DNA of 64,000 nucleotides, from UHGV virus genome UHGV-0225074; one strand, given 5' to 3'. Position numbers and translations under genes: made by a program. Below are positions 35,504 to 57,154 of this stretch, piece by piece; the first letter of the stretch is position 1; the number at the start of each line of letters is the position of its first letter. This stretch comes from a virus. The notes beneath the pieces were generated by a model that saw only the letters and a program-made list of their open reading frames with translations, ran no database searches and was not told where the DNA came from.

Positions 35504-36633
35504 ATAACCCCCACACGACGTAACTCGCTTGAAAGGGTTGTCTTATCATTTGCAGAACGTTTCATGTAGACCATCTGGAAAATGATAGATGCCCACTGAC
35601 CTGCACTCATTTTCCGTTGTGTGCCGTCCCACGAAGTGAACTCAACACCGTTCGGGAACCAGGTTTTATACTGGTTAATGATCGCTTGCCACATGGATTT
35701 CTCATCCTGAAGGTGTCCGATCAGGTTGAATGCAGCCGTATCACCGAAACGTCCAGCGATATCGAAACACTGGTAAGGCTTGATGTTATCTGAGCTATCA
35801 CCGCAAAGCATCTGGTAACCGAAGAACTTACGTCCCCATCCCTTGACCTTGCTACCTTCCATCCAGATCTCACCCATAGAATCATCGATTAACATAGGGA
35901 TCGGGTGCTTCCATGTCTTCTCTTCTGAATCGCGCATAGTATCGAAGATAAGTCCAGGATTTCCTTTCTGGTCTTTATCAAATGATGCCACGATGTAGTT
36001 GAACTTCCCGGTCTTCTGGTAATTCTCCCACCCCATGTAGGCAAGAACAGACAAATAATCATCTGCTTCAACACCATTGATCACCTTGGCGTTATACTTC
36101 CGGGTAACATAATCCCTTGTTTCCTGAAGAAGGAGTGGGCGTAATGTATCCTCACGATTACCCTTGTAACGCTCTGGAGCTGGGAGCATAAGGCGGAAGT
36201 TACCCTCACCACCAAGTACACCCATCCCTGTATTGCTTTCCATCTCAAGGTGTTCAAAGATAGCATTGATCTTTGTCTTCAGGATATGAAGGCAGTTTTC
36301 TACAGGTTCCGGTTCCTGAATGTCTTTAATCGTGAAGTCATCCCTACCCCACGGTACAAACACTCGGCCTTCGGCCTTTGCCTTCGCCTCCATGTTCATG
36401 TTTTGGTCTTTGATCCATCCACCGACAACTTTCTTTGTCGATCCCCAAAACTCAGTCCTGTTTTTGAAAATCTTTGTTCTTCCAGACTCAATGTGAGTGA
36501 CCTCAATTGTACGCTTTTCAGCACCAGCAGCTGATACAAAGCATGTCTGGTCGAGATCCAAAGCTAATACGCAGTCTTTTGTGACTTTATTTTTCCAATC
36601 TTTATCATACGGATATCCCACTAGCCCTCTCAA
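35500..36633 (-). CDS. flap endonuclease / 5'-3' exonuclease (RNase H-type)
   Basis: YKGNRE and GVEADD FEN motifs. Confidence 0.75.
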   Translation of the reverse strand: MRGLVGYPYDKDWKNKVTKDCVLALDLDQTCFVSAAGAEKRTIEVTHIESGRTKIFKNRTEFWGSTKKVVGGWIKDQNMNMEAKAKAEGRVFVPWGRDDFTIKDIQEPEPVENCLHILKTKINAIFEHLEMESNTGMGVLGGEGNFRLMLPAPERYKGNREDTLRPLLLQETRDYVTRKYNAKVINGVEADDYLSVLAYMGWENYQKTGKFNYIVASFDKDQKGNPGLIFDTMRDSEEKTWKHPIPMLIDDSMGEIWMEGSKVKGWGRKFFGYQMLCGDSSDNIKPYQCFDIAGRFGDTAAFNLIGHLQDEKSMWQAIINQYKTWFPNGVEFTSWDGTQRKMSAGQWASIIFQMVYMKRSANDKTTLSSELRRVGVI

Positions 36634-37121
36634 TCTTTACTCAAATACTCGTCCAAATACCGGACATCCAATTCCCACTTTTCGCGCTTGCTTCGCTCAT
36701 GATACAAATCAAACGCTTCCTTAACATATTTCTCTGCCACAGGGCGACTAACTTCATTCACTCTCATAAAGTGACGAAGGGCAATTTCACCACGCCCACG
36801 GATCCCTGCCAAACCAATATGCTTGACTTCATGACAGGAAGGACATAGCGCGATTAAACCTATCAGAGTTATCTTACCGTCTCCGAAATTCCACTTCTCA
36901 TGGCATTCAACAGGGTGTTTTGTTCCTTTACCCCCGCAGATTTCACATCGATAATTGGCCTTCGCATAACACTTCTTTCTGACAACATCCCACTGGGCTT
37001 TGGGGAGACGAGATCGGAGATTAGTAAACCACGCGGTCTTTGGAACTAGTTCAATCTCTAATTTCAAATCACCTCCACGTTGCAGCAACAACAATATCAA
37101 TAGCTCGTTCCCAGCACTCAC
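36630..37121 (-). CDS. zinc-binding HNH-like protein (start uncertain)
   Basis: CEICGG ... HEKW ... CPSCHEVKH; overlaps NADAR 3' end. Confidence 0.4.
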   Translation of the reverse strand: MSAGNELLILLLLQRGGDLKLEIELVPKTAWFTNLRSRLPKAQWDVVRKKCYAKANYRCEICGGKGTKHPVECHEKWNFGDGKITLIGLIALCPSCHEVKHIGLAGIRGRGEIALRHFMRVNEVSRPVAEKYVKEAFDLYHERSKREKWELDVRYLDEYLSKD

Positions 37122-37575
37122 CGAGAAGATTCAAACCACGCCAGTTGGTTGGGTCATCGATACGTGTGTCATATTCGTTTAATTTAACACCCCAGATGGC
37201 ATCATAAGGGGAGGCTTCCACAAACTTACGACCAGCATCCCGATGCCCAAGCGCCGCTTCTAGAACAGACCTGTTGGCCTTCATTTTCAATACAAGGCCT
37301 GAAGTCACAATATCCATTCTATTCTCTTCCCAGACGCTGTTGTCGAAACCTTTTACCTGACGACCAAGAGCTTTGGCCTCATTAGGGTTATCAACCGTAG
37401 CGATACGGGAAGCAATTTCTTTGTCATCGAAGAGCATTGCCTTCTGGAACATCATGTAATGTTCTACAGTGAAAAACTCGTAACCACCACAACGAATAGG
37501 AATAACTTGGCGGTAGTGATTACTGAACATATCCCGGTAAGTGAAGAAAAAGACGTATTTATCAGTTACTCGCAT
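37069..37575 (-). CDS. NADAR (YbiA-like) domain protein
   Basis: YVFFFTYRDMFSNHY ... CGG ... FTVEHYMMFQKA ... SPYDAIWG; GAGG RBS before ATG 37575. Confidence 0.7.
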   Translation of the reverse strand: MRVTDKYVFFFTYRDMFSNHYRQVIPIRCGGYEFFTVEHYMMFQKAMLFDDKEIASRIATVDNPNEAKALGRQVKGFDNSVWEENRMDIVTSGLVLKMKANRSVLEAALGHRDAGRKFVEASPYDAIWGVKLNEYDTRIDDPTNWRGLNLLGECWERAIDIVVAATWR

Positions 37576-37582
37576 TATTGCC

Positions 37583-37777
37583 TCAATGAAATGTTTTCTT
37601 ACTTGGACAAGAACCAGCGCCATCTTTTGTTACAATCTCTGTTCGATGACCGTCGCTGTAAACGCAGACCTTAGAGCTGCCGTTGGTATATTCATCAACC
37701 AAATCGAGAGTGTTTACAGTTGCGAATACCGGAGAAGAGAGCAGCAATGCTGCGATAAGAATTTTTGTGCGGATCAT
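37583..37777 (-). CDS. small secreted protein with signal peptide (64 aa)
   Basis: AAGGAG RBS; MIRTKILIAALLLSSPVFA signal-like N-terminus; two Cys. Confidence 0.45.
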   Translation of the reverse strand: MIRTKILIAALLLSSPVFATVNTLDLVDEYTNGSSKVCVYSDGHRTEIVTKDGAGSCPSKKTFH

Positions 37778-37840
37778 TGTGTATCTCCTTTTGTAAGTAG
37801 AGACCCGATGATAGTCTATCACCGGGCCTTTTGTCAACTC

Positions 37841-38731
37841 TTACTTACCTGCTGGTAAGGTAACGAATGGGGTCTGAGAACCACTGGTCATGTAGACTGG
37901 GGTCACACCGTTCCACTTGTTGATCGCTTCCAGTTGCATGATTTCTGGGTTTTTTCGGAGAGAATCACCACGCAGTTGGATAGATTCTGCTTCGCCTTTT
38001 GCCAGTGCTACTTTAGCATCTGCTTCACCCTGAGCTTGCAGTCGCTTAGATTCAGCTTCACCGCGAGCTGCTTCAATTTGTTTCTGAGCTTCAGCTTTAG
38101 TCTGCTGGATTTCGTTTTCACGCAGCAGCGCTTTCTGAGTCGCTTCGATCTTAGCGTTGATGGACGCAGTTACCTGAGGAGGATAACCAAGGTCATCAGT
38201 GTAAGACAGTTTCACAATAACGATACCTACCGGGTCAAGTTTCTGCTTCAGGGTCTTGGTCACTCGGTCCAGAAGCTGAGATTTACCATCACCAGCCAGT
38301 GTACCAATGTCCATTGTACCCGCTTCCTTGATCAACGCATCAGAGATATTCTGACGAATGTTGACATCGGTAATCTCCTGGACGCCTTTACGGTAGGTCT
38401 GGAAGATCTTGGTAACCTTAGAGCGGTCAACGTAATACTCAACACCGATCTTCGCAGTAACCGTCATAGAATCTTTGGTCTGGAAGTTAAACGGTTGTTC
38501 GTAGTTGTTCAACTGGTTGAACGTCGGGAACTGATAGATCTCTTCGTTCCAGGTTAACCAATACTTACCAACGCCCACTTCTTGCTGCTGAACGCCTTTC
38601 TCATCACCATACAGGTCAACCTTAACACCCACATAACCCGCCGGAACAGTTGCACGTTCACAACCAGTCAGACCAATTGCACCCAGGGCGATCAGGCCAG
38701 CAAATACTACGCGTTTGATATTCTTAAGCAT
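37841..38731 (-). CDS. SPFH (band-7/HflK-like) domain lipoprotein
   Basis: Lipobox LTGC; SPFH-like core; Ala/Glu-rich coiled-coil tail. Confidence 0.55.
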   Translation of the reverse strand: MLKNIKRVVFAGLIALGAIGLTGCERATVPAGYVGVKVDLYGDEKGVQQQEVGVGKYWLTWNEEIYQFPTFNQLNNYEQPFNFQTKDSMTVTAKIGVEYYVDRSKVTKIFQTYRKGVQEITDVNIRQNISDALIKEAGTMDIGTLAGDGKSQLLDRVTKTLKQKLDPVGIVIVKLSYTDDLGYPPQVTASINAKIEATQKALLRENEIQQTKAEAQKQIEAARGEAESKRLQAQGEADAKVALAKGEAESIQLRGDSLRKNPEIMQLEAINKWNGVTPVYMTSGSQTPFVTLPAGK

Positions 38732-39447: not shown

Positions 39448-39509
39448 ATATTGCTCCTTTGTTTGGTTTAGTGTGGTCAGTATAACCGTTCAGTTTTATT
39501 TGTCAAGCT

Positions 39510-39734: not shown

Positions 39735-39785
39735 TTCGTTCTCCTTTTGTCTTGATGGGTCATTATACAGACCCAGATACGATTG

Positions 39786-40463
39786 TCAAACAATAATGTT
39801 TGGTTTTTTGAAAGTCCCTGGCTTCATGATTTTACCGCCTTTGTCGAAGAATACGACACGTGGCTCTTCTTTCATATTCTCATCAACAATGGAGAAATGA
39901 ACACCTTCATAGCGTCCACCATTACGCTGTTCGATACAGGTGCATTCTGCCTCAAGGGCTTTTGCCAAGTCAAGGTCTTTATGCAAAGACTGAATTTCAC
40001 TAAGTGTTGGATATTTAGAATCATTAGATTCCAGAACGCTATGCATGTTCTTATGCAATTGCATATCAAGACCAAACAACAAAGCTGTGCTCAATTTAAG
40101 CATCCCCTCATAGTCATCATTCGCAAAAGCATCCAAAGCTTTACCAGGAGAAAACTTAAGGTCCGGATTATAAGTTAAATATTTATCTGAGGATAGCGAA
40201 TAGTTATTACTCAACCAATAAGCATACGACGCCACAACAAACAAGTCACACGCTCCATCAACAACTTCCTTACGGTCATTTTCGATTAATGCTGTAACGG
40301 TTTCTTGTAACTCCTCTCCTACAAACTCCCACTGCTTTCCCAATGGGGTAAATTCACCCTTTGCAGATGCTGCGACAGAATTCCAATCTACAACATGTTT
40401 CGCATACTTAACAAGAGAGGTTGGGCGCAGCATAGCATTCAGAGTATCATAAGCTTCTTTCAT
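39786..40463 (-). CDS. MazG-like nucleotide pyrophosphohydrolase domain protein
   Basis: EELQETVTALIEND ... EVVDGACDLFVVA resembles the MazG EExxE ... D motif. Confidence 0.4.
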   Translation of the reverse strand: MKEAYDTLNAMLRPTSLVKYAKHVVDWNSVAASAKGEFTPLGKQWEFVGEELQETVTALIENDRKEVVDGACDLFVVASYAYWLSNNYSLSSDKYLTYNPDLKFSPGKALDAFANDDYEGMLKLSTALLFGLDMQLHKNMHSVLESNDSKYPTLSEIQSLHKDLDLAKALEAECTCIEQRNGGRYEGVHFSIVDENMKEEPRVVFFDKGGKIMKPGTFKKPNIIV

Positions 40464-41544: not shown

Positions 41545-42827
41545 GTTAATGTATCTAGTTCACGAACGCTTTGGCCCACAGGGAACTGAGGAACACCATC
41601 ATCAGTTCTAGCTTGGAACGTGAAGTTAATAAACTTACCCACCAGCAGGAGCATTCGTTCCTGAGATCTCTCTGCGTGGGTTCCCTTCATTTTACAGTTG
41701 AAACGTGTACCATCTTTCTCTTCGCAGAGTAATACACCCTCACCGTTCTTATCTTCCACAGAATCAAGGACTTTAGCCTCGCCATCTTGGAACAATTTCC
41801 ATTTTAGAAGGTCTGATGAACGCTGTCCAAATTCATACAAGCCTTTGAAGTTTCGGACAATAGAACCTTCAAACCCCCTCTCCATATATTTACCGATGGA
41901 CCATTTAACCTCTCTCTCACAAGAGACAACAATACCATGAACAATGTTAATAAGAGGTACTTCAAGTTCACACTCTACAGCTTCAGCAACGGATAAGAGG
42001 TCTTGGTGACGTGTCTTATCATGATCCGTTGAATACCAAGGACTTCCTGCATTCACAGGAATGTCGAAGATATGGTACTCTAGGTCAAGGCTTGAATAGC
42101 CGCCATAACGATCAACATCTTTAACTGGTTCGATCGCGATAGAGTAAACATCGCCATCAAAATCTTTCCAGCTCTCTTCCCCGTTGTCAACAGCTTTCTG
42201 ATGACGCTTCAGGTCAGACTGGTAATCCTTTTCAATCTCTTCTTCAATCTGCTCTGGTGTACGCCACTTCTTAGCGAGAGCGACAATCTTTTGCAGACTC
42301 AGACCATGAATGTACAGCTCCCCATCGAATTTGTCAAACCCTGAATGCTCAGAAAGGGATTTAACCTGTTTAGACAACTCAGAATCAAGCGGTACAGGAT
42401 ATAGTTTGTTACCACGGCTATTGAATTGTGGGAAGCCATCTGCATCAAGAGTAACCAGAGCACGTACACCATCGAGCTTTGGCTGTACGTATGCTGGATA
42501 AATTATTGATTTATAACGTTTAATTGCATCATGTGCCAGCATTGGGGAGAAGTTCTCTTCCTGTTCAAGCTTGCTTGTATCGTCACGATATCCAAGGCGA
42601 ACCTGTTTCTCCCATTTGGAAACGGCCTCAGCCCATGCTTGCTGTTCTGCGGTGGTTTCGTTAGAACGTCCAACGTTCTTTGGTTCACAGGTGGTAACCT
42701 TTTGTTGCTTCTTGCCACCAACCTTACCAAACTCTACAACTACCTGATTACCAACAATAAAAACCTTCCAACACTGGAAAGATCCATCTTTATTCAGTGC
42801 GAAAAGTGTTGAATTAACTTGTTGCAT
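41526..42827 (-). CDS. ATP-dependent DNA ligase
   Basis: KLDGVRAL motif I (KxDG), 433 aa. Confidence 0.75.
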   Translation of the reverse strand: MQQVNSTLFALNKDGSFQCWKVFIVGNQVVVEFGKVGGKKQQKVTTCEPKNVGRSNETTAEQQAWAEAVSKWEKQVRLGYRDDTSKLEQEENFSPMLAHDAIKRYKSIIYPAYVQPKLDGVRALVTLDADGFPQFNSRGNKLYPVPLDSELSKQVKSLSEHSGFDKFDGELYIHGLSLQKIVALAKKWRTPEQIEEEIEKDYQSDLKRHQKAVDNGEESWKDFDGDVYSIAIEPVKDVDRYGGYSSLDLEYHIFDIPVNAGSPWYSTDHDKTRHQDLLSVAEAVECELEVPLINIVHGIVVSCEREVKWSIGKYMERGFEGSIVRNFKGLYEFGQRSSDLLKWKLFQDGEAKVLDSVEDKNGEGVLLCEEKDGTRFNCKMKGTHAERSQERMLLLVGKFINFTFQARTDDGVPQFPVGQSVRELDTLTWEPVY

Positions 42828-43603
42828 TATTTCTCCTTTGTCTGTAAAACAGTTTTACCTTCAAGGTGATCCTCAACCATTTTAACCAGGCCGGGATTAC
42901 TAAAGGCATCAACAGCTCCGGTACGATAAACTACAACACCCGCATCTTCGTACATCAACTGCTCGTCATATCTAACAGCAGGATTGACAACTACAACTTT
43001 AGTACCCCGCATAACCGCAGGGAACAATTCCCAGTTGAAGTTGATTACCGTGTTTGAACATCCAACAACAATTACAAGGTCTTGGCTTGTCAAGGACTCT
43101 AAGGTATCATACATAGGGCCATAGGCTGGAGCATTTTCACCAAAGAAAATTACGTTTGGTTTACACCAATCATAATCATCAGGATCAATTTGGTCGTAAC
43201 CAATATCGACAATCTCTATCTTCTGAGTGAAAGCATCTTTAACAAGGATCTCTTTCAGATAACCATGTATGTACAGAGTATCTTCTTTCGGTACACCTGC
43301 ACGTTCCAACAAATCATCGACGTTAGTCGTCATGTTGATAACTTGTCCAGGATAACGTTTGTACCATTCAGCAACACGAAGATGTGCAGCATTCGGGTGT
43401 ACCGTTGGTAACTCTGCACGACGCTTGTTATAAAACATGTGCGTTTTATGGTAGAAATTACCACGGAAGGCGTGTATGTTACAAACCTCCTCAAGGTCGT
43501 ATTCATCCCACAGGGCTTTACCAGATTCAGTATCTGTGCGGAATGTACGTACACCACTCTCCGCAGAGAAGCCAGCACCACTTATAACGATAAGACGTCT
43601 CAT
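42827..43603 (-). CDS. Sir2-family NAD-dependent deacylase/ADP-ribosyltransferase-like protein lacking Zn Cys motifs
   Basis: ISGAGFSAESGVRTFR, TTNVDDLLERAG and HG Sir2 motifs. Confidence 0.7.
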   Translation of the reverse strand: MRRLIVISGAGFSAESGVRTFRTDTESGKALWDEYDLEEVCNIHAFRGNFYHKTHMFYNKRRAELPTVHPNAAHLRVAEWYKRYPGQVINMTTNVDDLLERAGVPKEDTLYIHGYLKEILVKDAFTQKIEIVDIGYDQIDPDDYDWCKPNVIFFGENAPAYGPMYDTLESLTSQDLVIVVGCSNTVINFNWELFPAVMRGTKVVVVNPAVRYDEQLMYEDAGVVVYRTGAVDAFSNPGLVKMVEDHLEGKTVLQTKEK

Positions 43604-43833: not shown

Positions 43834-44241
43834 TTACTGTAATTTCAATGAGTTACGCAGACGACGCTCTTGAGCATCACGAGTTTCCTGCGGAACACTG
43901 TGAATAGAATCATTCCCGTGGCGGTTCTCGACCACTAGGCTGATAACACGATACCCATTCTCCGCAGCGAGATCAAGATAAGGTTTCAGTTCTTTTTCAC
44001 TGGTAGAAGTATTAGACAAGATGATTTTACGAAATTTCCATTCCATCATTTCCTTTACTTGATCTTGGCACCATTTATGCGCTGCCTGGATATTTTCAGG
44101 TTTCCAGTCGTAAACACCATCTTCCGTGTAGTGAAATTTATCTGCTTCACAGATAGGCCACAAACCTTCTGCTAGCATATCTGCAACTGTAGATTTACCA
44201 GCACCAGACACACCGCGCAGGATAATCAGAGTCTTTTCCAT
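43834..44241 (-). CDS. P-loop kinase (polynucleotide kinase-like domain)
   Basis: LRGVSGAGKSTVA Walker A; 135 aa, kinase domain only. Confidence 0.5.
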   Translation of the reverse strand: MEKTLIILRGVSGAGKSTVADMLAEGLWPICEADKFHYTEDGVYDWKPENIQAAHKWCQDQVKEMMEWKFRKIILSNTSTSEKELKPYLDLAAENGYRVISLVVENRHGNDSIHSVPQETRDAQERRLRNSLKLQ

Positions 44242-44250: not shown

Positions 44251-44595
44251 TCAGTAATTGTTTCTCAAGATCGTAATACGATACTTCGAGAAGCTCTCTT
44301 TTGCAAGCATGAACTTTTGTGCAGCAGAAGGGTTAGACGTGTGGACATAGAGTTTAGCATCATGCACAGGAAGTTTCCCATACACAAGCTTCTCTTCCAA
44401 GGCTAACAGGCAGTCATAGCCCTCCATTTCTGAATCTTCACCGAGGTCATTGTCGAAATGCCACTCTGTGACATAACGATAGAACTTTGACCGATTATCA
44501 AGAAAATCCATAAATTTCTGAGAGGTCTTGAACCACAATGCATCAGGATAACCGTAGTCTTTAGGGTCTCTTAAATCGTCAAGCCAGACAATCAT
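44251..44595 (-). CDS. hypothetical protein (114 aa)
   Basis: ORF between kinase and ligase. Confidence 0.45.
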   Translation of the reverse strand: MIVWLDDLRDPKDYGYPDALWFKTSQKFMDFLDNRSKFYRYVTEWHFDNDLGEDSEMEGYDCLLALEEKLVYGKLPVHDAKLYVHTSNPSAAQKFMLAKESFSKYRITILRNNY

Positions 44596-45554
44596 TTTTG
44601 AACTCCAACGTAAAAACGACTATCGCGATCAAAGAGGTCTTCAATCGCAAAATAATCTTCAACAACCTGACGACGTTTTTGAGAGTCCATCCCAGCCCAG
44701 TCGTCTTTAGAGTAATACTCACGAATATGGTCTAGCAACTCGTAATACTCTTCGTCAATACGCTTCTTGGCATCTTTCGGGTTATCCCAGATCATATCCC
44801 ACTTGTTATCACCTCCACGCATCAGGAATTTCTTCGCCAGATAATGTGGGGACTTGATTTTCAAAAGTAGTTCGCTATTTTCGTCATCTGTCCCGATATT
44901 TCGGACAACAAAACCTTCGTGGCTAACAGCATGACTGGCTGCAACGACATCGCCAAATGCACGGACATCCCATTGAGGACGTTTTGCACCGATCACTTCA
45001 GCGATGCGATCAAGTTTGTGCTCTTCAACCATAACACCGTTTAAAGCGAGATCACGGACACCAATCAGATAAGCACCTTCTTTCTCTTCCACAATATGTG
45101 GGTCGCTGCTATCGCATATTTCGAAAATGAAAGTGTAATCTTCACGGAAAGAAATCAGATCAAAATTCATTTTTTCGAGGTACTTACGAGCCAATTCTGA
45201 AAACTCAGAATCCAATGTCCCTGTTGTTGAAACGAGCAGCTTGTCTTTGTGTATTGCCGCTGTAGCCATAAAACCATTGACCTTGCGGGAACAAACAACC
45301 GGTTTGTCAAGAGGAAGGTCAGTTCCATTCTCGAAGCGGTTGAAAATCTTAGTGAAAGGCCAGATAATCACGTTGTCTTCTGAATCAACAACCATGCCAC
45401 GGCACTCAAGCAGTCGTGGGTCAGTATGCCACAGGTTATCCCAGAACACATTGTTCTTATACTTCAGCACAGAAAGACCCGCGAACGGGCCTTCGGTGTA
45501 AGTCTTTTTGGTTACCAGTTTTTTAGCAACCAAATCGTCTACGTTGAATTTCAT
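44592..45554 (-). CDS. Rnl2-like RNA ligase
   Basis: Motif I KVNG, motif IV EGFVVR, motif V K..K (LKIKSPHYLAKK); 320 aa. Confidence 0.55.
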   Translation of the reverse strand: MKFNVDDLVAKKLVTKKTYTEGPFAGLSVLKYKNNVFWDNLWHTDPRLLECRGMVVDSEDNVIIWPFTKIFNRFENGTDLPLDKPVVCSRKVNGFMATAAIHKDKLLVSTTGTLDSEFSELARKYLEKMNFDLISFREDYTFIFEICDSSDPHIVEEKEGAYLIGVRDLALNGVMVEEHKLDRIAEVIGAKRPQWDVRAFGDVVAASHAVSHEGFVVRNIGTDDENSELLLKIKSPHYLAKKFLMRGGDNKWDMIWDNPKDAKKRIDEEYYELLDHIREYYSKDDWAGMDSQKRRQVVEDYFAIEDLFDRDSRFYVGVQK

Positions 45555-46061: not shown

Positions 46062-46655
46062 TTATTCTCCGTGGTCAGCAGTGTAGATTGGTTTTTTGAG
46101 GCACATCAGGACTGCCTCACGCATCGTCAGAGGACGACCATGAACATCCCAACCTACATCGAGAATACGTCCACCGGGGGCTGTATAGGAGCCGTGGCTA
46201 TGCCCGTGCAACATAACTGACCCGTGGTGTGCTTTGTTCCACGATGCGAACGGATAGTGAGACATACACACATGCACCTTCTCTTTTCCAGTGCTGAAGT
46301 TAATCTCTTTATAATCAACGACTTCATGACCGAATTCACGGAAGATACGTTTCGTATCTCGGTTGTCATGGTTACCACCAACCAGAATGATCTTTCCGTT
46401 GATCTTTTCAAGGATGTCACGAACGCGAGGCTCCATGTAACGTCCGTAAGCAATCACGAAGTCACCAAGGTGCGCTACGACATCATCTGGTTTAACGTGC
46501 TTATTCCAGATTTCAATCATTCCTGCATTCATGGCATACAGACTTTCACGGTCTTCTTTTGGGCCGTACAGTTTCTTCCGGAATTTATCACACGAGGGAA
46601 AACCCAGAATATTGGTGTGCCACCAGTGCGTGTCTGACGTTACGTGGTCGATCAT
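46062..46655 (-). CDS. calcineurin-like metallophosphoesterase
   Basis: SDTHW ... HLGDF ... GGNHD ... GHSH metallophosphatase motifs. Confidence 0.7.
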   Translation of the reverse strand: MIDHVTSDTHWWHTNILGFPSCDKFRKKLYGPKEDRESLYAMNAGMIEIWNKHVKPDDVVAHLGDFVIAYGRYMEPRVRDILEKINGKIILVGGNHDNRDTKRIFREFGHEVVDYKEINFSTGKEKVHVCMSHYPFASWNKAHHGSVMLHGHSHGSYTAPGGRILDVGWDVHGRPLTMREAVLMCLKKPIYTADHGE

Positions 46656-48155: not shown

Positions 48156-48473
48156 ATGGGGTACATTGCAACAGGTAAGCACATCTACGGCAACTTCGAA
48201 CTGAAGCTGCTGTCGGTGACCTGTGCCTCTTCCAATGATAAGATAGTGTACCTATATATGCGGCATCAGTTCCATTACTTCAAATCGATGCGGAAGGAGT
48301 ACCACGAATCGCTGGATAGCATAGCTGATGCAGTTGGCCTATCACGGGCGACCACAACAAGGTGTGTAAGCAACCTTGAGAAATTAAAATGGTTGACAAA
48401 ACATACGACGCGTACCAAGATGGGTCACAACCAAACAATTTATGAAGTACATTCTTGGAAAGAGGAGAAATGA
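48156..48473 (+). CDS. winged-helix HTH DNA-binding protein (105 aa)
   Basis: GGAGGAG RBS; HTH-like SIADAVGLSRATTTRCVSNLEKL. Confidence 0.5.
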   Translation: MGYIATGKHIYGNFELKLLSVTCASSNDKIVYLYMRHQFHYFKSMRKEYHESLDSIADAVGLSRATTTRCVSNLEKLKWLTKHTTRTKMGHNQTIYEVHSWKEEK

Positions 48474-48474
48474 A

Positions 48475-49275
48475 ATGAGTTTAGAACTTCGTCTGAACAA
48501 ACTGGTAGTTCCTGTCGATCACTTTACGTTCAAAGGTGGTGAAGAACAGGTTAGAATCGATATGGCGCATACTCCGAAAGGTGGTATTGGTTTCGTAGAC
48601 ATCACTGCGAAAATTAAAAATTCTACTGATGTTATGGCACTTGCCATGTTGGTGGATGCATGTTCTCGCCTTGAAGGTCTCCATCATACTGCACAATTTA
48701 CTTTGCACTTGCCGTATATCCCATATGCACGTCAGGACCGCGTAATGCAACCTGGTGAAGCGTTATCCATCAAAGTTTTCGCAAATATCGTCAACTCTCT
48801 TGGGTTTGACAAGGTCATTGTCGATGATCCGCATAGCGATGTCTCCGCAGCACTGCTTAACAACGTTAAAATTCGTGGTCAGGATGCTCTTATTGCGGAA
48901 TTCCATGAAGGTCTTGCCGGAAAAGATGTTGTTATCGTTGCCCCTGACGCCGGAGCACGTAAAAAAGCTCAGAAAGTTTCCGATCGTCTCCGCCTCCCTC
49001 TGGTAGAAGCTGGAAAAGTGCGTGACCTGAAGACAAATGAAATTACCGGGACTGCTGTTTTCGGTGATGTTGAAGGCCGCGAGTGTGTTATTGTCGATGA
49101 TATCTGCGATGGTGGTCGAACATTCATTGCCCTGGCACAAGCATTGAAGGCAAAAGGTGCAAAACGTGTTATTCTTTACGTAACTCACGGTATCTTTTCC
49201 TTCGGTAAAGAAGTTATCTACGAAGGCGGCGTTGATGAAATCTACGCGTACCACGACTGGACCGAAAACTTTTAA
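48475..49275 (+). CDS. adps: ribose-phosphate pyrophosphokinase-like protein (Prs family; candidate NARP1 ADPR-PP synthetase Adps)
   Basis: AGGAG RBS before ATG 48475; PRPP-binding VIVDDICDGGRTF loop; paired with Nampt-like gene. Confidence 0.6.
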   Translation: MSLELRLNKLVVPVDHFTFKGGEEQVRIDMAHTPKGGIGFVDITAKIKNSTDVMALAMLVDACSRLEGLHHTAQFTLHLPYIPYARQDRVMQPGEALSIKVFANIVNSLGFDKVIVDDPHSDVSAALLNNVKIRGQDALIAEFHEGLAGKDVVIVAPDAGARKKAQKVSDRLRLPLVEAGKVRDLKTNEITGTAVFGDVEGRECVIVDDICDGGRTFIALAQALKAKGAKRVILYVTHGIFSFGKEVIYEGGVDEIYAYHDWTENF

Positions 49276-49335
49276 TTGACAAATGAATAAGTGGGCGTAC
49301 AATCGCCCTATTAAACAAACAAAGGAGAAACAAAA

Positions 49336-51022
49336 CATGCTTAATCAAGAAAGTCCTATCCTGTTCGCTGACTTTTACAAACCTTCACATATCTCCATGT
49401 ATGATAAACGTTCTGAAATTGTTCAGGATAACATGACCCCTCGTAATGCGAAGCACTTCATCCACTTCGCTGATAACGACCAGCGTGTCATGTTTGCTGG
49501 CCTTCAGGGATTTATTAAGTGGTTCCTTATCGACATGTTCAACAATAACTTCTTCAACCTCCCGAAAGAAGAAGCGGTTGCTGATTATCGTGAGGTTTGC
49601 GACTCCAGCATCGGCATTGGCATGGTAGAAACATGGGGCTTTGAGGCTCTTCATGATCTCGGTTATCTTCCTCTGGAAATCCGTGCTCTTCCAGAAGGGA
49701 CGCTTTCTCCGGTTCAGGTCCCAATGTTTACAATCCAGAATACGCACCCGGATTTTTACTGGTTGCCTAACTTCTTGGAAAGTGTGATCTCCGCAGAAAC
49801 TTGGAAAACTATCACAACTGCAACGACGTTCTGGCAGTATCGCAAGCTGTCTGAAAAATGGGCTGCTGAGACCTGTGATAACAACGACCATGTTGCATTC
49901 CAGAACCACTGCTTCGCATATCGCGGTGAAGCTGGTACTCACGACGCAGCACAGAGCGAATTTGGTCAACTGATCAACTCTATGGGTACAGACACTATCC
50001 CAGCGATTCTGTATGCTCGTCGTTATTACAACATGAAAGGCAAGTTCGTTGCTGGTTCTATTCCTGCATCTGAACACTCTGTTGCAACCACGAACATCGG
50101 CTTTATCGTCGGTCGCCTACAAGGTGAACACCCGGAACTAACTCTGGACGAAGCACGTTTCCTGGCTGAGGTTGAATTCCTGCGTTTCTACATCACGGAA
50201 ATTTTCCCTAAAGGTTTTGTTTCCTACGTGGCAGACAGTTATGACTTCTGGGCGATTATCACCAAAGCAGCAGCGATCCTGAAACAGGACATCATGGCAC
50301 GTGATGGTCGTGTTGTTTTCCGTCCTGACTCCGGCATTCCTGAACATATCATTGCAGGCTATCGTAGCCTCGGTGAGTTTGATGACTGGTCTGATGCGCT
50401 GCCAGCACTACAGGAAGATTCAAATTCAGAAGTTGCCAAGATTGAAGGTAAATACTACCGGATTCTTGTTGACGATGAAGATAATGCCTACTTCGACTTC
50501 CAACCTTCAGGTCTTGAAGAGCATGAAGTTAAGGGTGCAATTCAGTGTCTGTGGGAAATCTTTGGTGGTGAAGTTAACTCCAAGGGTTACAAAGTTCTGG
50601 ACAGTCATGTAGGTCTGATCTATGGTGATTCCATCACTGTTGCTCGTGCAAAAGACATCTTTGAACGTCTGAAAGATAAAGGCTTTGCATCCAGCAATAT
50701 CGTGTACGGTGTTGGTTCCTTTACCACCCAGTATACAACCCGTGATTCACTTGGTATGGCTGTGAAAGCAACTGGCGCTGTGATTGATGGTCAGCAGATC
50801 ATGGTTGTCAAAGAACCGAAGACTGACCTCGGTAAGAAATCTGCAAAAGGTTTCCTGAAGGTTGTTCGTGATGAGAATGGCGAACTGAAACTGGTTGACA
50901 ATTGTCAGCTTGAAGAGGTACAGTCTGAAGATAATGAACTGCGTCGTGTGTTCTACAACGGCAAACTGATTGTCGATGAAGATCTGACAACGATTCGTGA
51001 ACGCGCAGCCGATCAACTGTAA
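49336..51022 (+). CDS. namat: nicotinamide phosphoribosyltransferase-like protein (NadV/Nampt family; candidate NARP1 Namat)
   Basis: AAGGAG RBS before ATG 49336; ILFADFYKPSH matches the Nampt DSYK motif; about 560 aa. Confidence 0.6.
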
Positions 51023-52256: not shown

Positions 52257-52273
52257 TATCTACCACATCAAAC

Positions 52274-52346
52274 GTTCAGTAGCTCAGTTGGTAGAGCAGG
52301 TTCTTCATACGGACAAGGTCAGTGGTTCAATTCCGCTCTGAACGAT
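52274..52346 (+). tRNA. tRNA-Met(CAT)
   Basis: Cloverleaf by eye: CGTTCAG/CTGAACG acceptor, GCTC/GAGC D-stem, loop TTCATAC, T-loop TTCAATT. Confidence 0.6.
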
Positions 52347-52349
52347 AAG

Positions 52350-52424
52350 GCCCTCAAGCTCATTAGGTATGAGCAATCGACTCATAATCGAGAGGTAGGC
52401 AGGTTCGAATCCTCCGGGGGTCAC
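52350..52424 (+). tRNA. tRNA with CAT anticodon (Met/fMet/Ile-lysidine), CCA encoded
   Basis: Acceptor GGCCCTC/GGGGGTC with G-U pairs; loop CTCATAA; T-loop TTCGAAT. Confidence 0.55.
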
Positions 52425-52518
52425 CAATTAAAAATGTTGGCGAGGATATCTGATTGAGTTAGTATCCTCATGAACATAAACGGGACAAATTCCCAAATAA
52501 AATGCAAAGGAGAAAATT

Positions 52519-52830
52519 ATGACTAAGAAAAATACTGCTAAGAAAGTATCCGCCATCGACGCTATCAAACAGCCTTTCCAGTTTGAGTCGAAGTCTACTC
52601 AGACTCATTCTGCACCGCACGATGTGCGTCTCGGTGGTGTAGAGAAAACCGTATCAGTTTTCGATCGCCGTAAAGGCGAGTATAAATCCGAAACCCGGAT
52701 TGAAGGTGGTCAGATTATCTCTGCTTCTTACCGCATCCGCACAGGAAAGACCAAGCGTGAACGTGCTGGTAAGGTAAAGGAAACTAAGGTTGTTGAAACC
52801 GTAGCTCCGAAGAGTAAGAAGAAAAAGTAA
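52519..52830 (+). CDS. Lys-rich basic protein (103 aa)
   Basis: AAGGAG RBS; C-terminal APKSKKKK; inside tRNA array. Confidence 0.5.
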   Translation: MTKKNTAKKVSAIDAIKQPFQFESKSTQTHSAPHDVRLGGVEKTVSVFDRRKGEYKSETRIEGGQIISASYRIRTGKTKRERAGKVKETKVVETVAPKSKKKK

Positions 52831-52892
52831 TTTCTCCGGCATGGGGAATGACGATTCCGTGAAACGTCTTTAAAAACACGGGCATGTTTTCG

Positions 52893-52965
52893 GGGGTATT
52901 AACACAGCGGTTAGTGTAGCGGCCTCTTAAGCCGAAGGTCGAAGGTTCGAATCCTTCATGCCCCA
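52893..52965 (+). tRNA. tRNA-Lys(CTT), CCA encoded
   Basis: GGGGTAT/ATGCCCC acceptor, ACAC/GTGT D-stem, loop CTCTTAA, GAAGG-TTCGAAT-CCTTC T-arm. Confidence 0.6.
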
Positions 52966-53096
52966 CCAAGTTTGAAATGAGAGAGATACGGGTTCGACTC
53001 CCGTTCTTGCTGGCCCGGCTCGCGTAGTGGCACAGGGCGATAGCTTAAATGGACGAAAGTGCTCTCGTTTCAAATCTAAACCAAAAGGAGAACGAA

Positions 53097-53285
53097 ATGT
53101 TCGGATCCCTGTTACGTATGGCTGGCGATATTGTTGGTACTGCTGTTGTTGTCACGGCAACTGTTGCAGAACCTTTTGTAGATGTAGCCGCAGAAGTTCT
53201 TGACGCCGCTGATGAGATTATCGTATCACCTACCGCAGACGTCGTTGGTGAAGTTTGTGACTCCATTAAGGACATTGTACGATGA
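53097..53285 (+). CDS. small hydrophobic/acidic protein (62 aa)
   Basis: AAAGGAG RBS before ATG 53097. Confidence 0.45.
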   Translation: MFGSLLRMAGDIVGTAVVVTATVAEPFVDVAAEVLDAADEIIVSPTADVVGEVCDSIKDIVR

Positions 53286-53419
53286 GTGGCGGTGTTATCT
53301 TTATCATCATGTCAGTGATCTCTTTCCTGCTTGTTCTTTGGTATTATTGGTCATGGTTTGAAAACAACCCTACCACCGAAGAAATAATCAAAGATTCGCT
53401 TGACAAACACAATCTGTAA
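53282..53419 (+). CDS. small membrane protein (45 aa)
   Basis: ATGA coupling; single TM; not in ORF track. Confidence 0.4.
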   Translation: MSGGVIFIIMSVISFLLVLWYYWSWFENNPTTEEIIKDSLDKHNL

Positions 53420-53428
53420 GTGTAGTAT
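53400..53428 (+). promoter_or_regulatory. sigma70-like promoter (TTGACA-17-TAGTAT)
   Basis: Consensus -35 with 17-bp spacer, 30 nt upstream of 53461 gene. Confidence 0.5.
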
Positions 53429-53460
53429 TTAAAACCTAATTTAACGCAAAGGAGAACTTA

Positions 53461-54072
53461 ATGACTGATTCTAAAACTGTAATTTCCGTAACTGAACGTG
53501 CCACTAAAGCAGTAACCACTGCCGCTACTGGTCTGACTAAAGTAGTCGCTGAACTGCAATCTCTGGCAGAAGGGTCTGAAAAGATCAGTCAGGAAATTCA
53601 GTTTAAGCAGCAGGAACTGGGACAAATTGAAGTTCAGTTCAACGAAAAACTGGCAGAAGAAAAATCCAAGCTGAAGATCAAAGTTCTGGAAAATGAAGAT
53701 TCCGTTCTGAACTCTATCCTGAAAGCTCGCGGCCTTGTAGCTGTAGAACCGGGTGTTGTTGAAGACCTTCGTGCAGAGCTGGCGATCTCTCAGCAGAACA
53801 ATGCTGAAGCTGTAGAAAGCGCAGTTGCCGACGTTAAACGTAGCGCTGCAATCGAACTGAATGCGGTTAAGGCAAATCTGGAATCTGCTCACAAGGTTGC
53901 AATTGCAGAACTTACTGCGAATAGCAAGGCTAAGGATGACCGTATTGCAATGCTGACAGAACAGCTTGAAGCAGCGCGTGGTGATCTGAAGGCTGAACGC
54001 GAAACCCGTCTGGAAATCGCAAAAGCTGATGCTAACCGCCAGGGCGTTGTTGTCAACACTGGCAAAAACTAA
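53461..54072 (+). CDS. coiled-coil protein (203 aa), codon-optimised
   Basis: AAGGAG RBS; Ala/Glu/Lys-rich heptad-like sequence; E. coli-preferred codons. Confidence 0.55.
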   Translation: MTDSKTVISVTERATKAVTTAATGLTKVVAELQSLAEGSEKISQEIQFKQQELGQIEVQFNEKLAEEKSKLKIKVLENEDSVLNSILKARGLVAVEPGVVEDLRAELAISQQNNAEAVESAVADVKRSAAIELNAVKANLESAHKVAIAELTANSKAKDDRIAMLTEQLEAARGDLKAERETRLEIAKADANRQGVVVNTGKN

Positions 54073-54146
54073 TGCGTAGTGTCGACACGGATGTCGGCAA
54101 ATATTTGAAGTAACTTAAATTTTAAATTTCATGAGAGGAGAATTCT

Positions 54147-54794
54147 ATGTCTACTAAGATGTCTGTAACCCGCGCTCTGGCTACCCTGACCAAGGTTGAG
54201 GAAAAGATTCAGAAGCGTATCGAAGCGCTGAACACGATTCACATCGCGAAAGGCACTGACGCAAACCGTCAGATCCCAGGCTCTATCCAGAGCGTTGAGG
54301 ACTTCGAGAAATCTGCTCAGGCAGACTTCCAGGGTGTTCAGGATCTTCTGGCTGTTCGCGACGACCTGAAGGCGAAAGTTGTTCAGTCAAACGCTGTAAC
54401 AAAAGTTGAGATCGCTGGCGAGTCTATGACCGTAGCTCAGGCGATTGAACGTAAACGCACCATCGTTTTCAAAGAGCTTCTGCTTGGCAAACTGAAGTCT
54501 CAGTATAATCATGCTCAGGTTCGCCTGAACCGTGATACACAGGAATTCGAAGCGAAGCTTGAAGCTGCTCGTGCTCCATATGTCCAACGTGATAAAGCGC
54601 CAGACGCTGCACAGTTGGCTGTAGTAGAAGCGCCAGTTCGTAGCATGGGAACTCCTTCCATTGTCGACCCACTGGGTCTGGCAGATCGCATTCGTTCTCT
54701 GGAAGCAGAGATTGAAGACTTCAAGTCTAACGTTGACTTTGTTCTTTCCGAGTCAAATGCACGGACTGAAGTAGAGATTGAAGGATCAATCTAA
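54147..54794 (+). CDS. coiled-coil protein (215 aa), codon-optimised
   Basis: GAGAGGAG RBS; same style as 53461 gene. Confidence 0.55.
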   Translation: MSTKMSVTRALATLTKVEEKIQKRIEALNTIHIAKGTDANRQIPGSIQSVEDFEKSAQADFQGVQDLLAVRDDLKAKVVQSNAVTKVEIAGESMTVAQAIERKRTIVFKELLLGKLKSQYNHAQVRLNRDTQEFEAKLEAARAPYVQRDKAPDAAQLAVVEAPVRSMGTPSIVDPLGLADRIRSLEAEIEDFKSNVDFVLSESNARTEVEIEGSI

Positions 54795-55195
54795 AATATT
54801 TGCAGGAATTCTTGATTAACATCTTGTAATTCCTGTGAATAGCTGGTAAAGTTTTTAAATGCTGTTTTTGGTTAGCGAAGTCAGAAACATCTTGCCTCTA
54901 CCGGGGCCGGAGGTTAAACTGCTCCGAACATAATCATATAGGATGATACTTAAACGTATGTTTCCGTCAGTCCGCACAATGATGCGGTTTGATCGAAATT
55001 GTCGAATCGCGAATTCGAAAGACTTCAACATTCAGCATTCAAAGATTATCGTTCAAAGCTTAATGTTTAAACTTGAAGCTTCTAAACCGTAAAGCTAAAA
55101 TTTCTTTGATTACTTAAATCCTGGGTATAGGATCTTAGCTCACAAGATATGGCTAACTGACTCCTCCAGGCTGTTAATCGGAAACAGCATTTCTT

Positions 55196-55268
55196 GCTCG
55201 TATAGCTCAGTTGGTAGAGCAACTCCCTTGTAAGGAGAAGGTCGTGGGTTCAAGTCCTACTGCGAGCA
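55196..55268 (+). tRNA. tRNA-Thr(TGT), CCA encoded
   Basis: GCTCGTA/TGCGAGC acceptor, loop CTTGTAA, T-loop TTCAAGT. Confidence 0.65.
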
Positions 55269-55277
55269 CCAAACAAT

Positions 55278-55349
55278 TTCTCGATAGCTTACTTTGGTTA
55301 GAGCGGTCCCACGATAGGGACGGTACAGGTTCGATTCCTGTTCGAGAAG
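55278..55349 (+). tRNA. atypical tRNA-like gene, anticodon unclear (6-nt loop ACGATA on GTCCC/GGGAC stem)
   Basis: Perfect acceptor TTCTCGA/TCGAGAA, D- and T-arms present, CCA encoded, irregular anticodon arm. Confidence 0.35.
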
Positions 55350-55354
55350 CCAAT

Positions 55355-55460
55355 GCAGGGTAGGCGGTTTGTCAACCGCGAGGTCCATCCAGACCTGAAA
55401 AATATGCCAGAACTAACAGTACGGCTAAATACATAGGTGGTTAGATTCCACCGCCCTGCT
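55355..55460 (+). tRNA. atypical long (106 nt) tRNA-like gene with about 38-nt insert in the variable region
   Basis: Acceptor GCAGGGT/GCCCTGC, D-arm GCGG/CCGC, T-arm GGTGG-TTAGATT-CCACC, CCA encoded; anticodon arm irregular. Confidence 0.3.
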
Positions 55461-55645
55461 CCAAATCTATTCTGCTAGGTTCTGAAACACTTAAAATCTC
55501 CTGCATCTAGTGGGGTGTGATCTCTGTGTCGGCTTTGATATCAAGTTGATGAAAGGGATGGCGTAGGCTCTTCTTCGCAAGTAGAGGCGCTTCGGAGAGG
55601 CAACGGCGGTTGTCAGGACATCGGGACTTCACAAAATAGATTTCT

Positions 55646-55731
55646 GCGGGATTGGTGGTATTGGCAGTACACACGAGGCTTAAGACTTCGTAGGCCTCTG
55701 GGCCTTGAGGGTTCGAATCCCTCATCCCGCA
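55646..55731 (+). tRNA. tRNA-Leu(TAA), type II, CCA encoded
   Basis: GCGGGAT/ATCCCGC acceptor, loop CTTAAGA, variable-arm hairpin AGGCC/GGCCT. Confidence 0.6.
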
Positions 55732-55740
55732 CCAGTTTAA

Positions 55741-55819
55741 GAGGGCGTATCTCAACGGGCTTCTAACCCGTCGTTAATCGAGTAATTGGAGTATGCGGGT
55801 TCGAATCCTGCCGCCTTCG
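55741..55819 (+). tRNA. tRNA-Arg(TCT)-like, atypical (no clear D-arm)
   Basis: Perfect ACGGG-CTTCTAA-CCCGT anticodon arm and T-arm, CCA encoded; only 7 nt between acceptor and anticodon stem. Confidence 0.3.
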
Positions 55820-55938
55820 CCAAATTCACAGGACAGCCGGGACGGGTTTACTCCGAGCTGTGGAAGCGTCGAAAGACTATAGGACACGTCTTGACCCGAA
55901 TGTGTGGGAGCGAATTGAAATAATCGGGTCCCCCAAAA

Positions 55939-56009
55939 GCACGGTTGCTGGAGTGGCAACAGCTTTCTCTGCAAAAGAAATGTCAGGTGTTCGATTCACC
56001 TACCGTGCT
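55939..56009 (+). tRNA. tRNA-Cys(GCA), CCA encoded
   Basis: GCACGGT/ACCGTGC acceptor, TTTCT-CTGCAAA-AGAAA anticodon arm. Confidence 0.6.
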
Positions 56010-56051
56010 CCAAGTTGTTGAATATTTTTATAAAAAATGATAAAATGGCCC

Positions 56052-56080
56052 TTGACAGATAAATTTAAATCTGATAACAT
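56052..56080 (+). promoter_or_regulatory. sigma70-like promoter (TTGACA-17-TAACAT)
   Basis: Consensus -35 upstream of 56098 gene. Confidence 0.35.
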
Positions 56081-56097
56081 TAATAAGTGGGGTTATT

Positions 56098-56448
56098 ATG
56101 GCAGTAAAACAACAACTTACAAAGCGTCGTAGAGGAAAAGGTAGACCCCTTAAAGAAGAGTCTAATGCTATTCAGCTTGAGAAGAATATCCTTGACCTTA
56201 AGACCAATATGATTGCTATGATTCCTGATGCTCATAAGGTATTGAAAGATCTTATGACAAGTGCCACAACAAAGGACAATATCAGGGAAAATATTGCTCG
56301 ATTTGTAATTGAGAAAGGCGAACAAATGCTTTCTGATTACTTCGATGAAGAGAATGAAGAAGCTGAAACAACTAATGTTGATGACAATAAGTCTACTCCT
56401 ATGAGTAGGCCGTTCACAACAGATATTGTTCAGTTCAAACAAGGTTAA
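56098..56448 (+). CDS. hypothetical protein with basic N-terminus (116 aa)
   Basis: ORF inside tRNA array; KRRRGKGRP. Confidence 0.5.
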   Translation: MAVKQQLTKRRRGKGRPLKEESNAIQLEKNILDLKTNMIAMIPDAHKVLKDLMTSATTKDNIRENIARFVIEKGEQMLSDYFDEENEEAETTNVDDNKSTPMSRPFTTDIVQFKQG

Positions 56449-56450
56449 TT

Positions 56451-56531
56451 GGCTCGTTGGCAGAATGGCTATTGCAGCGGATTGTAAATCCGTGCCCTTC
56501 GGGGTTCCTGGTTCGAGTCCAGGGTGGGCCA
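56451..56531 (+). tRNA. tRNA-Tyr(GTA), type II, CCA encoded
   Basis: Loop TTGTAAA on GCGGA/TCCGT stem; variable-arm hairpin; T-loop TTCGAGT. Confidence 0.55.
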
Positions 56532-56540
56532 CCAATTAAT

Positions 56541-56613
56541 GGGAGTATAGCTCAGTCAGTAGAGCGCTCGACCGATAATCGAGAGGTCGCAGGAGCAAAG
56601 CCTGCTACTCCCA
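56541..56613 (+). tRNA. tRNA-Ile(GAT), unusual T-loop AGCAAAG
   Basis: GGGAGTA/TACTCCC acceptor, CTCGA-CCGATAA-TCGAG anticodon arm, CCA encoded. Confidence 0.5.
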
Positions 56614-56706
56614 CCACTCTCCGTCATAGTACCGCATCCTGACGTTTCGGATTGCATAATCAAGGTACTGGGAACTAGTAAGATACTATGACGGGATCGA
56701 TTTAAA

Positions 56707-56780
56707 GCGTTATTAGTGTTAGCGGTCCAGCACTCCGTCCTTCCAAGTCGGAAGCATCGGTTCGAATCCGATATAACGCT
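56707..56780 (+). tRNA. tRNA-Gly(TCC), CCA encoded
   Basis: GCGTTAT/ATAACGC acceptor, loop CTTCCAA, ATCGG-TTCGAAT-CCGAT T-arm. Confidence 0.6.
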
Positions 56781-56864
56781 CCAAATACGCCCCTAAACTG
56801 ATGAACGTCTGCGCGGCTGGAAACACCCACTCAATAGTTCAGATACCCAGGGGCAACAAACAAA

Positions 56865-56937
56865 TGCTCCTATCGGCTAAATGGACAGGCCGTCAGACTT
56901 TCAATCTGGAAATCCGAGTTCGATCCTCGGTGGGAGT
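56865..56937 (+). tRNA. tRNA-Glu(TTC), CCA encoded
   Basis: TCAGA-CTTTCAA-TCTGG anticodon arm, CCGAG-TTCGATC-CTCGG T-arm. Confidence 0.55.
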
Positions 56938-56947
56938 ACCAAATAAT

Positions 56948-57048: not shown

Positions 57049-57055
57049 CCAAACA

Positions 57056-57135: not shown

Positions 57136-57154
57136 CCAGATAATGGGGGCGACC

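Follow-up and report, generated by a model that had tools for sequence, protein, structure and literature searches.

NADAR proteins as erasers of nucleobase ADP-ribosylation

The work of Schuller et al. 2023 (Mol Cell; PMC11543638) revealed that proteins of the NADAR superfamily hydrolyse ADP-ribose (ADPr) off the N2 of guanine and act as antitoxins to DarT1. All NADAR families tested to date hydrolyse guanine-linked ADP-ribose (G-ADPr) in vitro (PMC11125620; PMC12945103), and this includes four out of four subtypes associated with Escherichia coli, YbiA and T4 gp30.3 among them, of which only some protected cells from DarT1 (Cihlova et al. 2024, PMC11125620). In phages, Johannesman, Carlson & LeRoux (bioRxiv 2024; Nat Commun 2025, PMC11825919) gave T4 gp30.3 the name AdfN and found it necessary and sufficient for T-even phages to withstand DarTG1. 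The same study reported that two unrelated phage NADARs, those of Bas32 and of Bas60-62 (the latter described by its authors as Vequintavirinae), neutralise DarT1 in uninfected cells and restore plaquing of RB69, T5 and Bas25 on hosts carrying DarTG1 but not on those carrying DarTG2. More recently, Glu-type NADARs and the YbiA family were found to take cytidine-linked ADP-ribose (C-ADPr) off both DNA and RNA as well, an activity that DarG1 and T4 AdfN do not have (Mikolcevic et al. 2026, PMC12945103). Here we describe a NADAR gene located at positions 37069-37575, on the minus strand, of the virus genome UHGV-0225074, a stretch of 64,000 nucleotides (nt) that we call the window and that belongs to a large myophage of Klebsiella in the genus Mydovirus (Vequintavirinae).

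The explanation that we favour, with a probability of roughly 0.6, is that the product of this gene is a base-ADP-ribose N-glycohydrolase, working in counter-defence as an orphan antitoxin of the AdfN kind against DarT1-like toxins. An earlier note on this DNA had read the gene in much the same way, and the present analysis supports that reading, yet the idea is already in print: publications of 2024-2025 assigned a counter-defence role to homologues, and KB57_119, the orthologue in phage vB_KpnM_KB57, is already annotated in RefSeq as a "NADAR family protein".

Family, fold and active site

The placement of the window protein, a single-domain and stand-alone polypeptide of 168 amino acids (aa), in the NADAR superfamily, and within it in the Glu-type 'NADAR family' represented by the solved structure 8BAU, is supported by four independent lines, namely profile matches, sequence matches to solved NADARs, the fold of a structural model and the conservation of catalytic and ADP-ribose-binding residues. 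Among the profiles, Pfam PF08719 (NADAR; DUF1768) covers the protein from profile position 11 to 155 of 163 (120.7 bits, cutoff 35.1; E 9.4e-35), which bears out the family named in the earlier note, and NCBIfam TIGR02464, the model for the YbiA-type riboflavin-intermediate N-glycosidase, reaches 125.2 bits against its cutoff of 73.7; the match in PHROGs is phrog_1017 (function label unknown, E 2e-52). A search of the Protein Data Bank (PDB) with the single sequence returned 8BAU, the Phytophthora NADAR with ADP-ribose, at E 2e-15 and 2B3W, the YbiA of E. coli, at E 2e-4, and a profile of 45 sequences strengthened both matches, to 6e-36 and 3e-19 respectively. The AlphaFold2 model obtained from the same 45-sequence alignment has a mean predicted local distance difference test score (pLDDT) of 97.2 and a predicted template modelling score (pTM) of 0.91, and the only significant matches that Foldseek found for it in the PDB were again 8BAU (TM 0.81) and 2B3W (TM 0.75).

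Residues of the active site were mapped by aligning the window protein with 8BAU and taking over the roles given by Schuller et al. 2023 (PMC11543638). The ADP-ribose contacts E43, K50, R93, E125, D130 and W133 of 8BAU correspond in this alignment to E38, K45, R86, E120, D125 and W128, of which E38, K45, E120 and D125 are invariant in 45 of the 45 homologues. E38 and K45 align with the Glu and Lys that are required for activity in known NADARs, these being E88/K95 in the NADAR of E. coli C7, E43/K50 in 8BAU (PMC11543638) and E36/K43 in T4 AdfN. The third catalytic position, where DarG1 antitoxins have an Asp and the NADARs of T4-type phages a His (PMC11543638), is occupied by a Glu, E120, within the motif VEASPYD, equivalent to E125 of 8BAU and E167 of SCO5665. 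The four motifs that the earlier note had quoted as characteristic of the family can all be read in the translation: FFFTYRD at residues 9-15, CGG at 29-31, EHYMMFQKA at 38-46 and IWG at 127-129. With E 6e-29 the window protein also matches PDC-M42C, a PADLOC model for one component of an uncharacterised candidate defence system, so that bacteria, too, may make use of such NADARs.

Start codon, boundaries and expression signals

The coding sequence (CDS) coincides exactly with the interval assigned to it in the earlier note. Its true start is almost certainly the ATG at 37575, since a Shine-Dalgarno-like GAGG precedes this codon by 5 nt, the N-terminus MR(V/I)TDKYVFF is common to the window protein and its homologues in other phages and in bacteria, M1 is nearly invariant in the alignment of 45 sequences, and the KB57 orthologue is recorded in RefSeq with the same length of 507 nt. 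The longest mechanical open reading frame (ORF) sharing the same stop codon begins at ATG 37623 and would encode 184 aa; this start was rejected because a gene beginning there would run 41 nt into the one upstream and because the homologues begin at the methionine of 37575. At 0.45, against 0.444 for the window, the GC content of the gene carries no compositional sign of a recent horizontal acquisition.

The gene that precedes it encodes a 64-aa protein, is of equal length in KB57 (KB57_118) and has AAGGAG and the ATG at 37777 as its start signals; the transcription unit to which the NADAR gene belongs probably begins with it. In the gap between this small gene and a lipoprotein gene further upstream there is a putative sigma-70-like promoter, TTGACA-N18-TATCAT, which is kept in phage KB57 and is separated from the NADAR gene by that small gene. 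Two other near-consensus promoters of this kind, at 39762-39789 (12/12) and 39479-39506 (11/12), are found on the minus strand, all three lying within 2 kb and pointing leftward, an arrangement suggesting that host RNA polymerase transcribes the replication block. Sigma-70-like promoters in the region numbered 15, against 11.0 +/- 3.3 in shuffled sequence, not clearly above expectation.

At the 3' side the situation differs from that described in the earlier note, where the NADAR gene was said to overlap the next one, an HNH endonuclease gene directly downstream. An overlap, of 53 nt, arises only with the longest mechanical ORF for the HNH protein, which starts at GTG 37121 and which we rejected in favour of TTG 37067. 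This TTG is most likely the start of the HNH gene because the PHROG profile (phrog_5200) begins to match at residue 19 of the longer ORF, precisely the residue encoded at TTG 37067, because the HNH orthologue KB57_120 is annotated as the shorter, 438-nt CDS, and because GTG 37121 has no ribosome-binding site. The junction reads TGG AGG TGA T TTG, with the NADAR stop codon followed by a gap of 1 nt and by the TTG. A GGAGG that would serve as ribosome-binding site for the HNH gene is found within the last codons of the NADAR CDS, which suggests translational coupling of the two genes instead of overlap. The free-standing HNH gene sits between the NADAR gene and an exonuclease gene, homing endonucleases are annotated in this position in relatives, and it may represent a mobile homing-endonuclease insertion.

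Relatives and distribution

Around the NADAR gene, 1.4 kb of the window are 98.7% identical to phages KpS8 and Seu621 and 96% identical to vB_KpnM_KB57; orthologues in some GenBank records are labelled "GTP cyclohydrolase II" or "hypothetical protein". A tblastn search with the window protein returned 719 phage records, 29 of them with at least 95% identity, and relatives with 35-48% identity are widespread in phages of Staphylococcus, Listeria, Enterococcus, Bacillus, E. coli, Cronobacter and Salmonella. Moreover, stand-alone NADARs with 40-48% identity, metagenomic and bacterial, were found in the protein database.

In a neighbour-joining tree of 124 sequences, the window protein falls into a subclade of 19 members together with those of the Vequintavirinae phage W70 (48% identity) and of Salmonella phage SSE121 (P0009, 59%). 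This subclade is part of a large clade of NADARs not associated with DarT, which comprises 85 of the 124 sequences and also holds AdfN-Bas60, in a separate subclade, while the YbiA of E. coli lies outside the clade. The BLOSUM62 distances from the window protein are 0.66 for Bas60, 0.68 for the 8BAU protein, 0.82 for E. coli YbiA and 0.94 for T4 AdfN. In phage W70 the NADAR gene is followed in a similar order by one hypothetical gene, a homing endonuclease gene, more genes and an endonuclease gene. Because of this similar gene order, and of a GC content equal to that of the window, the NADAR gene seems to have been passed down vertically in this phage lineage for a long time. The gene context of two bacterial relatives, from a Vibrio (P0020) and a Marinobacter (P0092), is uninformative: they are orphan genes among small genes of unknown function, with no ADP-ribosyltransferase as a neighbour.

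Proposed function

In the mechanism that we propose, K45 and W128 would hold the diphosphate of a base-linked ADP-ribose and E38, E120 and D125 would position its distal ribose, so that the N-glycosidic bond between ribose and base could be cleaved, with release of ADP-ribose and restoration of the base. During infection, a host-type promoter would drive the gene along with those for replication, and the predicted promoter (37837-37808) would fit an early expression by host RNA polymerase, before or alongside the surrounding replication genes. Toxins of the DarT1 type attach ADP-ribose to guanine in the single-stranded DNA of the phage and block its replication, and by erasing this modification the NADAR would allow replication to continue. 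Since the third catalytic residue is a Glu, the window protein is predicted to remove not only guanine-linked but probably also cytosine-linked ADP-ribose, and to act on RNA as well as on DNA. No activity is expected on the thymine-linked ADP-ribose produced by DarT2. In this regard, the earlier note had presented the gene as an anti-DarTG candidate without distinguishing between the two systems: the precedent of the phage NADARs, above all of AdfN-Bas60, with which the window protein shares 41% identity, points to DarTG1 (guanine) as the expected target, and not to DarTG2 (thymine). A possible target is present in the host genus: as judged by similarity, the 6-kb plasmid p6 of Klebsiella sp. 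PO552 (CP037447.1) carries at 3028-4358 an unannotated DarT1/DarG1-like pair, made up of a DUF4433 protein 41% identical to the DarT1 of E. coli C7 and an adjoining 'hypothetical protein' 51% identical to its DarG1.

Several observations weigh against this proposal. The experimental precedent comes from outside the subclade of 19 sequences to which the window protein belongs, with Bas60 in another subclade, and a BLASTP comparison of the window protein with the C7 DarG1 detected no similarity (E 11). Moreover, neither E. coli YbiA nor T4 AdfN protected cells against DarT1 despite hydrolysing G-ADPr in vitro (PMC11125620; PMC11825919), and because of these two cases hydrolysis in vitro does not imply protection in vivo. 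The promoter on which the timing of expression would depend is a match to the consensus only. Furthermore, DarTG1 looks rare: out of 5426 complete E. coli genomes, 29 contained the primer site of a C7-type darT1, a search of 72,556 plasmids brought up a DarT1 relative on one from Klebsiella, and, as weak evidence, a low-sensitivity, pattern-limited scan of species-representative genomes found no DarT1 in the Enterobacterales and only six distant loci elsewhere. The presence of this type of NADAR in about 720 phage genomes, from Gram-positive as well as Gram-negative hosts, suggests a selective pressure broader than DarTG1 and, with DarTG1 apparently so rare, leaves room for other substrates.

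If the protein is active as proposed, this group of Klebsiella phages, considered as therapeutic candidates, could replicate in hosts that defend themselves with DarTG1-like DNA ADP-ribosylation, which would be useful when choosing or engineering phages. The window gene adds a Klebsiella-phage subclade to the AdfN class and raises no new question; the point worth pursuing is why the spread of this type of NADAR among phages so far exceeds that of the one target system known.

Alternative explanations

The wide distribution just described is also the starting point for a variant of the proposed role, in which the NADARs of the Vequintavirinae would, through their Glu-type active site, be broad-spectrum erasers (guanine and cytosine, DNA and RNA) and not dedicated to DarTG1, their near-universal retention in about 720 large phages of Gram-negative and Gram-positive hosts reflecting base-ADP-ribosylating defence toxins not yet described and far commoner than DarTG1; we consider this variant doubtful. 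Unlikely to a somewhat greater degree is that the window protein acts on soluble molecules derived from nicotinamide adenine dinucleotide (NAD) or ADP-ribose, such as immune signals or NADase products, be it by hydrolysis, by sequestration or by a non-catalytic binding of ADP-ribose that inhibits an effector. The same excess of phage NADARs over the apparent rarity of DarTG1 would fit such a role, as would the Sir2, phosphoribosyl pyrophosphate (PRPP) synthetase and NAMPT genes of the window; soluble ADP-ribose derivatives are argued to be possible substrates by Iyer et al. 2022, and Johannesman et al. cite a phage NADAR, reported as a Retron-Eco1 inhibitor, for which enzymatic activity was not needed. 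However, these NAD genes lie 5-12 kb away, in part on the opposite strand and with many unrelated genes between, no NADAR in the clade of the window protein is known to act on a soluble substrate, the tested homologue acts in vivo on DNA-linked ADP-ribose (PMC11825919), and a strict conservation of all catalytic residues argues against a purely binding role. RNA as the main substrate, whereby the protein would protect the tRNAs or mRNAs of the phage, or the translation apparatus of the host, from RNA-targeting ADP-ribosyltransferase (ART) toxins, appears less probable again. NADARs do remove guanosine-linked ADP-ribose from RNA (PMC11833690), Glu-type NADARs remove it together with the cytidine-linked form from RNA and DNA (PMC12945103), and the window contains 24 tRNAs as well as genes for RNA repair (an Rnl1 ligase, a P-loop kinase and a phosphoesterase). 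Nevertheless, the gene is placed among DNA-replication genes and not in the RNA-repair cluster, NADARs are inactive on RNA carrying ADP-ribose at a phosphate end (PMC11833690), and the NADAR literature surveyed describes no anti-phage system that ADP-ribosylates RNA bases in a way reversed by NADARs. An action on RNA and the counter-defence role against DarT1-like toxins are in any case compatible and not mutually exclusive.

Much further down the scale of likelihood we place a housekeeping function of the YbiA type, as N-glycosidase on reactive intermediates of the riboflavin pathway. This function is brought to mind by the TIGR02464 score well above its cutoff, by the presence of the YbiA-defining Glu as E120 and by the names of orthologues in GenBank, several of them 'GTP cyclohydrolase II' and some 'riboflavin intermediates N-glycosidase'. 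However, identity to E. coli YbiA is 26%, the 45-sequence profile prefers 8BAU to YbiA, YbiA lies outside the clade of the window protein, and E. coli YbiA itself hydrolyses G-ADPr in vitro (PMC11125620); the name 'GTP cyclohydrolase II' is presumably a carry-over from RibA-fused homologues. We judged a riboflavin role unlikely on the basis of the grouping with the 8BAU type and not with YbiA, and because no riboflavin gene is annotated within 25 kb around the KB57 orthologue. The least credible of all is an eraser for a writer of the phage itself, reversing ADP-ribosylation by the Sir2-family protein or limiting self-damage: although the Sir2-family gene (42827-43603) is on the same strand, and Iyer et al. 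2022 note phage pairings that resemble toxin-antitoxin systems, with a sirtuin or an ART on one side and a Macro, NADAR or ARG domain on the other, about 5.2 kb and more than 10 genes separate it from the NADAR gene, nothing indicates an ADP-ribosyltransferase activity of this Sir2, and a tblastn search of the 64-kb window revealed no DarT homologue.

Genomic neighbourhood

As the earlier note had described, the NADAR gene is part of a replication and recombination block, in which neighbouring genes are annotated as exonuclease, endonuclease VII, exonuclease subunit of DNA polymerase, ribonucleotide reductase, thymidylate synthase and DNA ligase. Two envelope-associated products, the SPFH/Band-7 lipoprotein and the 64-aa protein with its signal-peptide-like N-terminus, are encoded within this block immediately upstream of the NADAR gene (Table 1). 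Further away, Sir2, PRPP synthetase and NAMPT make up a set for NAD salvage and NAD use, of the kind linked to countering NAD-depleting defences, and the P-loop kinase, Rnl1-type ligase and phosphoesterase genes lie near one another and resemble as a set a split cassette for tRNA repair (Pnkp plus ligase). Both the NAD and the RNA-repair genes are 5-12 kb from the NADAR gene, with no obvious shared unit. The window also contains an array of 24 tRNA genes on the plus strand (52273-59694), including three for tRNA-Met and one odd call at 55278-55352 to which ARAGORN assigns a two-base anticodon.

Table 1. Features of the window around the NADAR gene and in the more distant NAD and RNA-repair regions
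Feature	Position	Strand	Details	Basis
HNH endonuclease gene	36630..37067	minus	probable TTG start 37067; directly downstream of NADAR gene	phrog_5200, E 1e-73
NADAR-domain CDS	37069..37575	minus	168 aa; 507 nt; stop codon 37069-37071	ORF call, Pfam, PHROG, PDB, model
Putative HNH ribosome-binding site GGAGG	37072-37076	minus	within last NADAR codons	
Shine-Dalgarno-like GAGG	37581..37584	minus	5 nt 5' of ATG 37575; over TGA 37583-37585 of preceding gene	read from sequence
Small upstream gene	37583..37777	minus	64 aa, signal-peptide-like N-terminus	phrog_4641, E 2e-31; KB57_118 of equal length
Sigma-70-like promoter TTGACA-N18-TATCAT	37808..37837	minus	gap between lipoprotein gene and 64-aa gene	11/12 match
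SPFH/Band-7 lipoprotein	37841-38731	minus	upstream of 64-aa gene	phrog_200
Sir2-family protein	42827-43603	minus		
P-loop kinase (AAA_33)	43834-44241	minus		
Rnl1-type RNA ligase	44592-45554	minus		
Calcineurin-like phosphoesterase	46062-46655	minus		
PRPP synthetase	48442-49275	plus		
NAMPT-type nicotinamide phosphoribosyltransferase	49283-51022	plus		

Comparison with known NADARs

When set against the NADARs described so far, the window protein is most distant from T4 AdfN (gp30.3), a member of the 'phage NADAR' family. Both are phage-encoded and the catalytic E36 and K43 of T4 AdfN align with E38 and K45, but the T4 protein has its own third catalytic residue, a His, removes G-ADPr but leaves C-ADPr in place, and functions in the T-even context only; an identity of 19%, a distance of 0.94 and the lack of a tblastn match to the window led us to reject the T4-type AdfN as the closest relative. 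The DarG1 of E. coli C7 belongs to the same superfamily and would carry out the same reaction on guanine-linked ADP-ribose, but it is a protein of 229 aa with an N-terminal extension and a catalytic Asp, encoded next to darT1. An identity as DarG1-type antitoxin was rejected, as the window protein has no similarity to DarG1, has a Glu in place of the Asp and lacks the N-terminal extension, with no DarT in the window.

The YbiA of E. coli (2B3W) is closer in that it shares the fold (TM 0.75), the Glu-type active site and a TIGR02464 score above cutoff; on the other hand, it is a housekeeping protein encoded on the chromosome in an operon under LexA control, 26% identical to the window protein and outside its clade, and it failed to protect cells from DarT1 (PMC11125620). 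The Phytophthora nicotianae NADAR 8BAU is the best match among solved structures, by sequence and by fold, with all ADP-ribose-contacting residues kept, including the equivalent of E125, although it is eukaryotic, not phage-encoded and only about 28% identical.

The closest described system is AdfN-Bas60, which we identified as bas60_0111, the single NADAR locus of Bas60 (Escherichia phage PaulScherrer, MZ501100). The Bas60 protein was tested experimentally, whereas the window protein is likened to it by sequence; it has two short insertions missing from the window protein and is assigned to another subclade. Its gene follows one for an FtsH-like protease and a hypothetical one, in contrast to the replication genes of the window, and it resides in a large E. 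coli myophage of a related group, the Stephanstirmvirinae, whereas the window phage belongs to the Vequintavirinae and infects other hosts. Despite these differences, the two proteins are homologous over their full length (41% identity, E 5e-37), both are phage-encoded, single-domain and stand-alone, begin with MR(V/I)TDKYVFF and carry the EASPYD motif, and as queries they retrieve virtually identical sets of about 720 phage genomes; both are members of the large clade of NADARs not associated with DarT.

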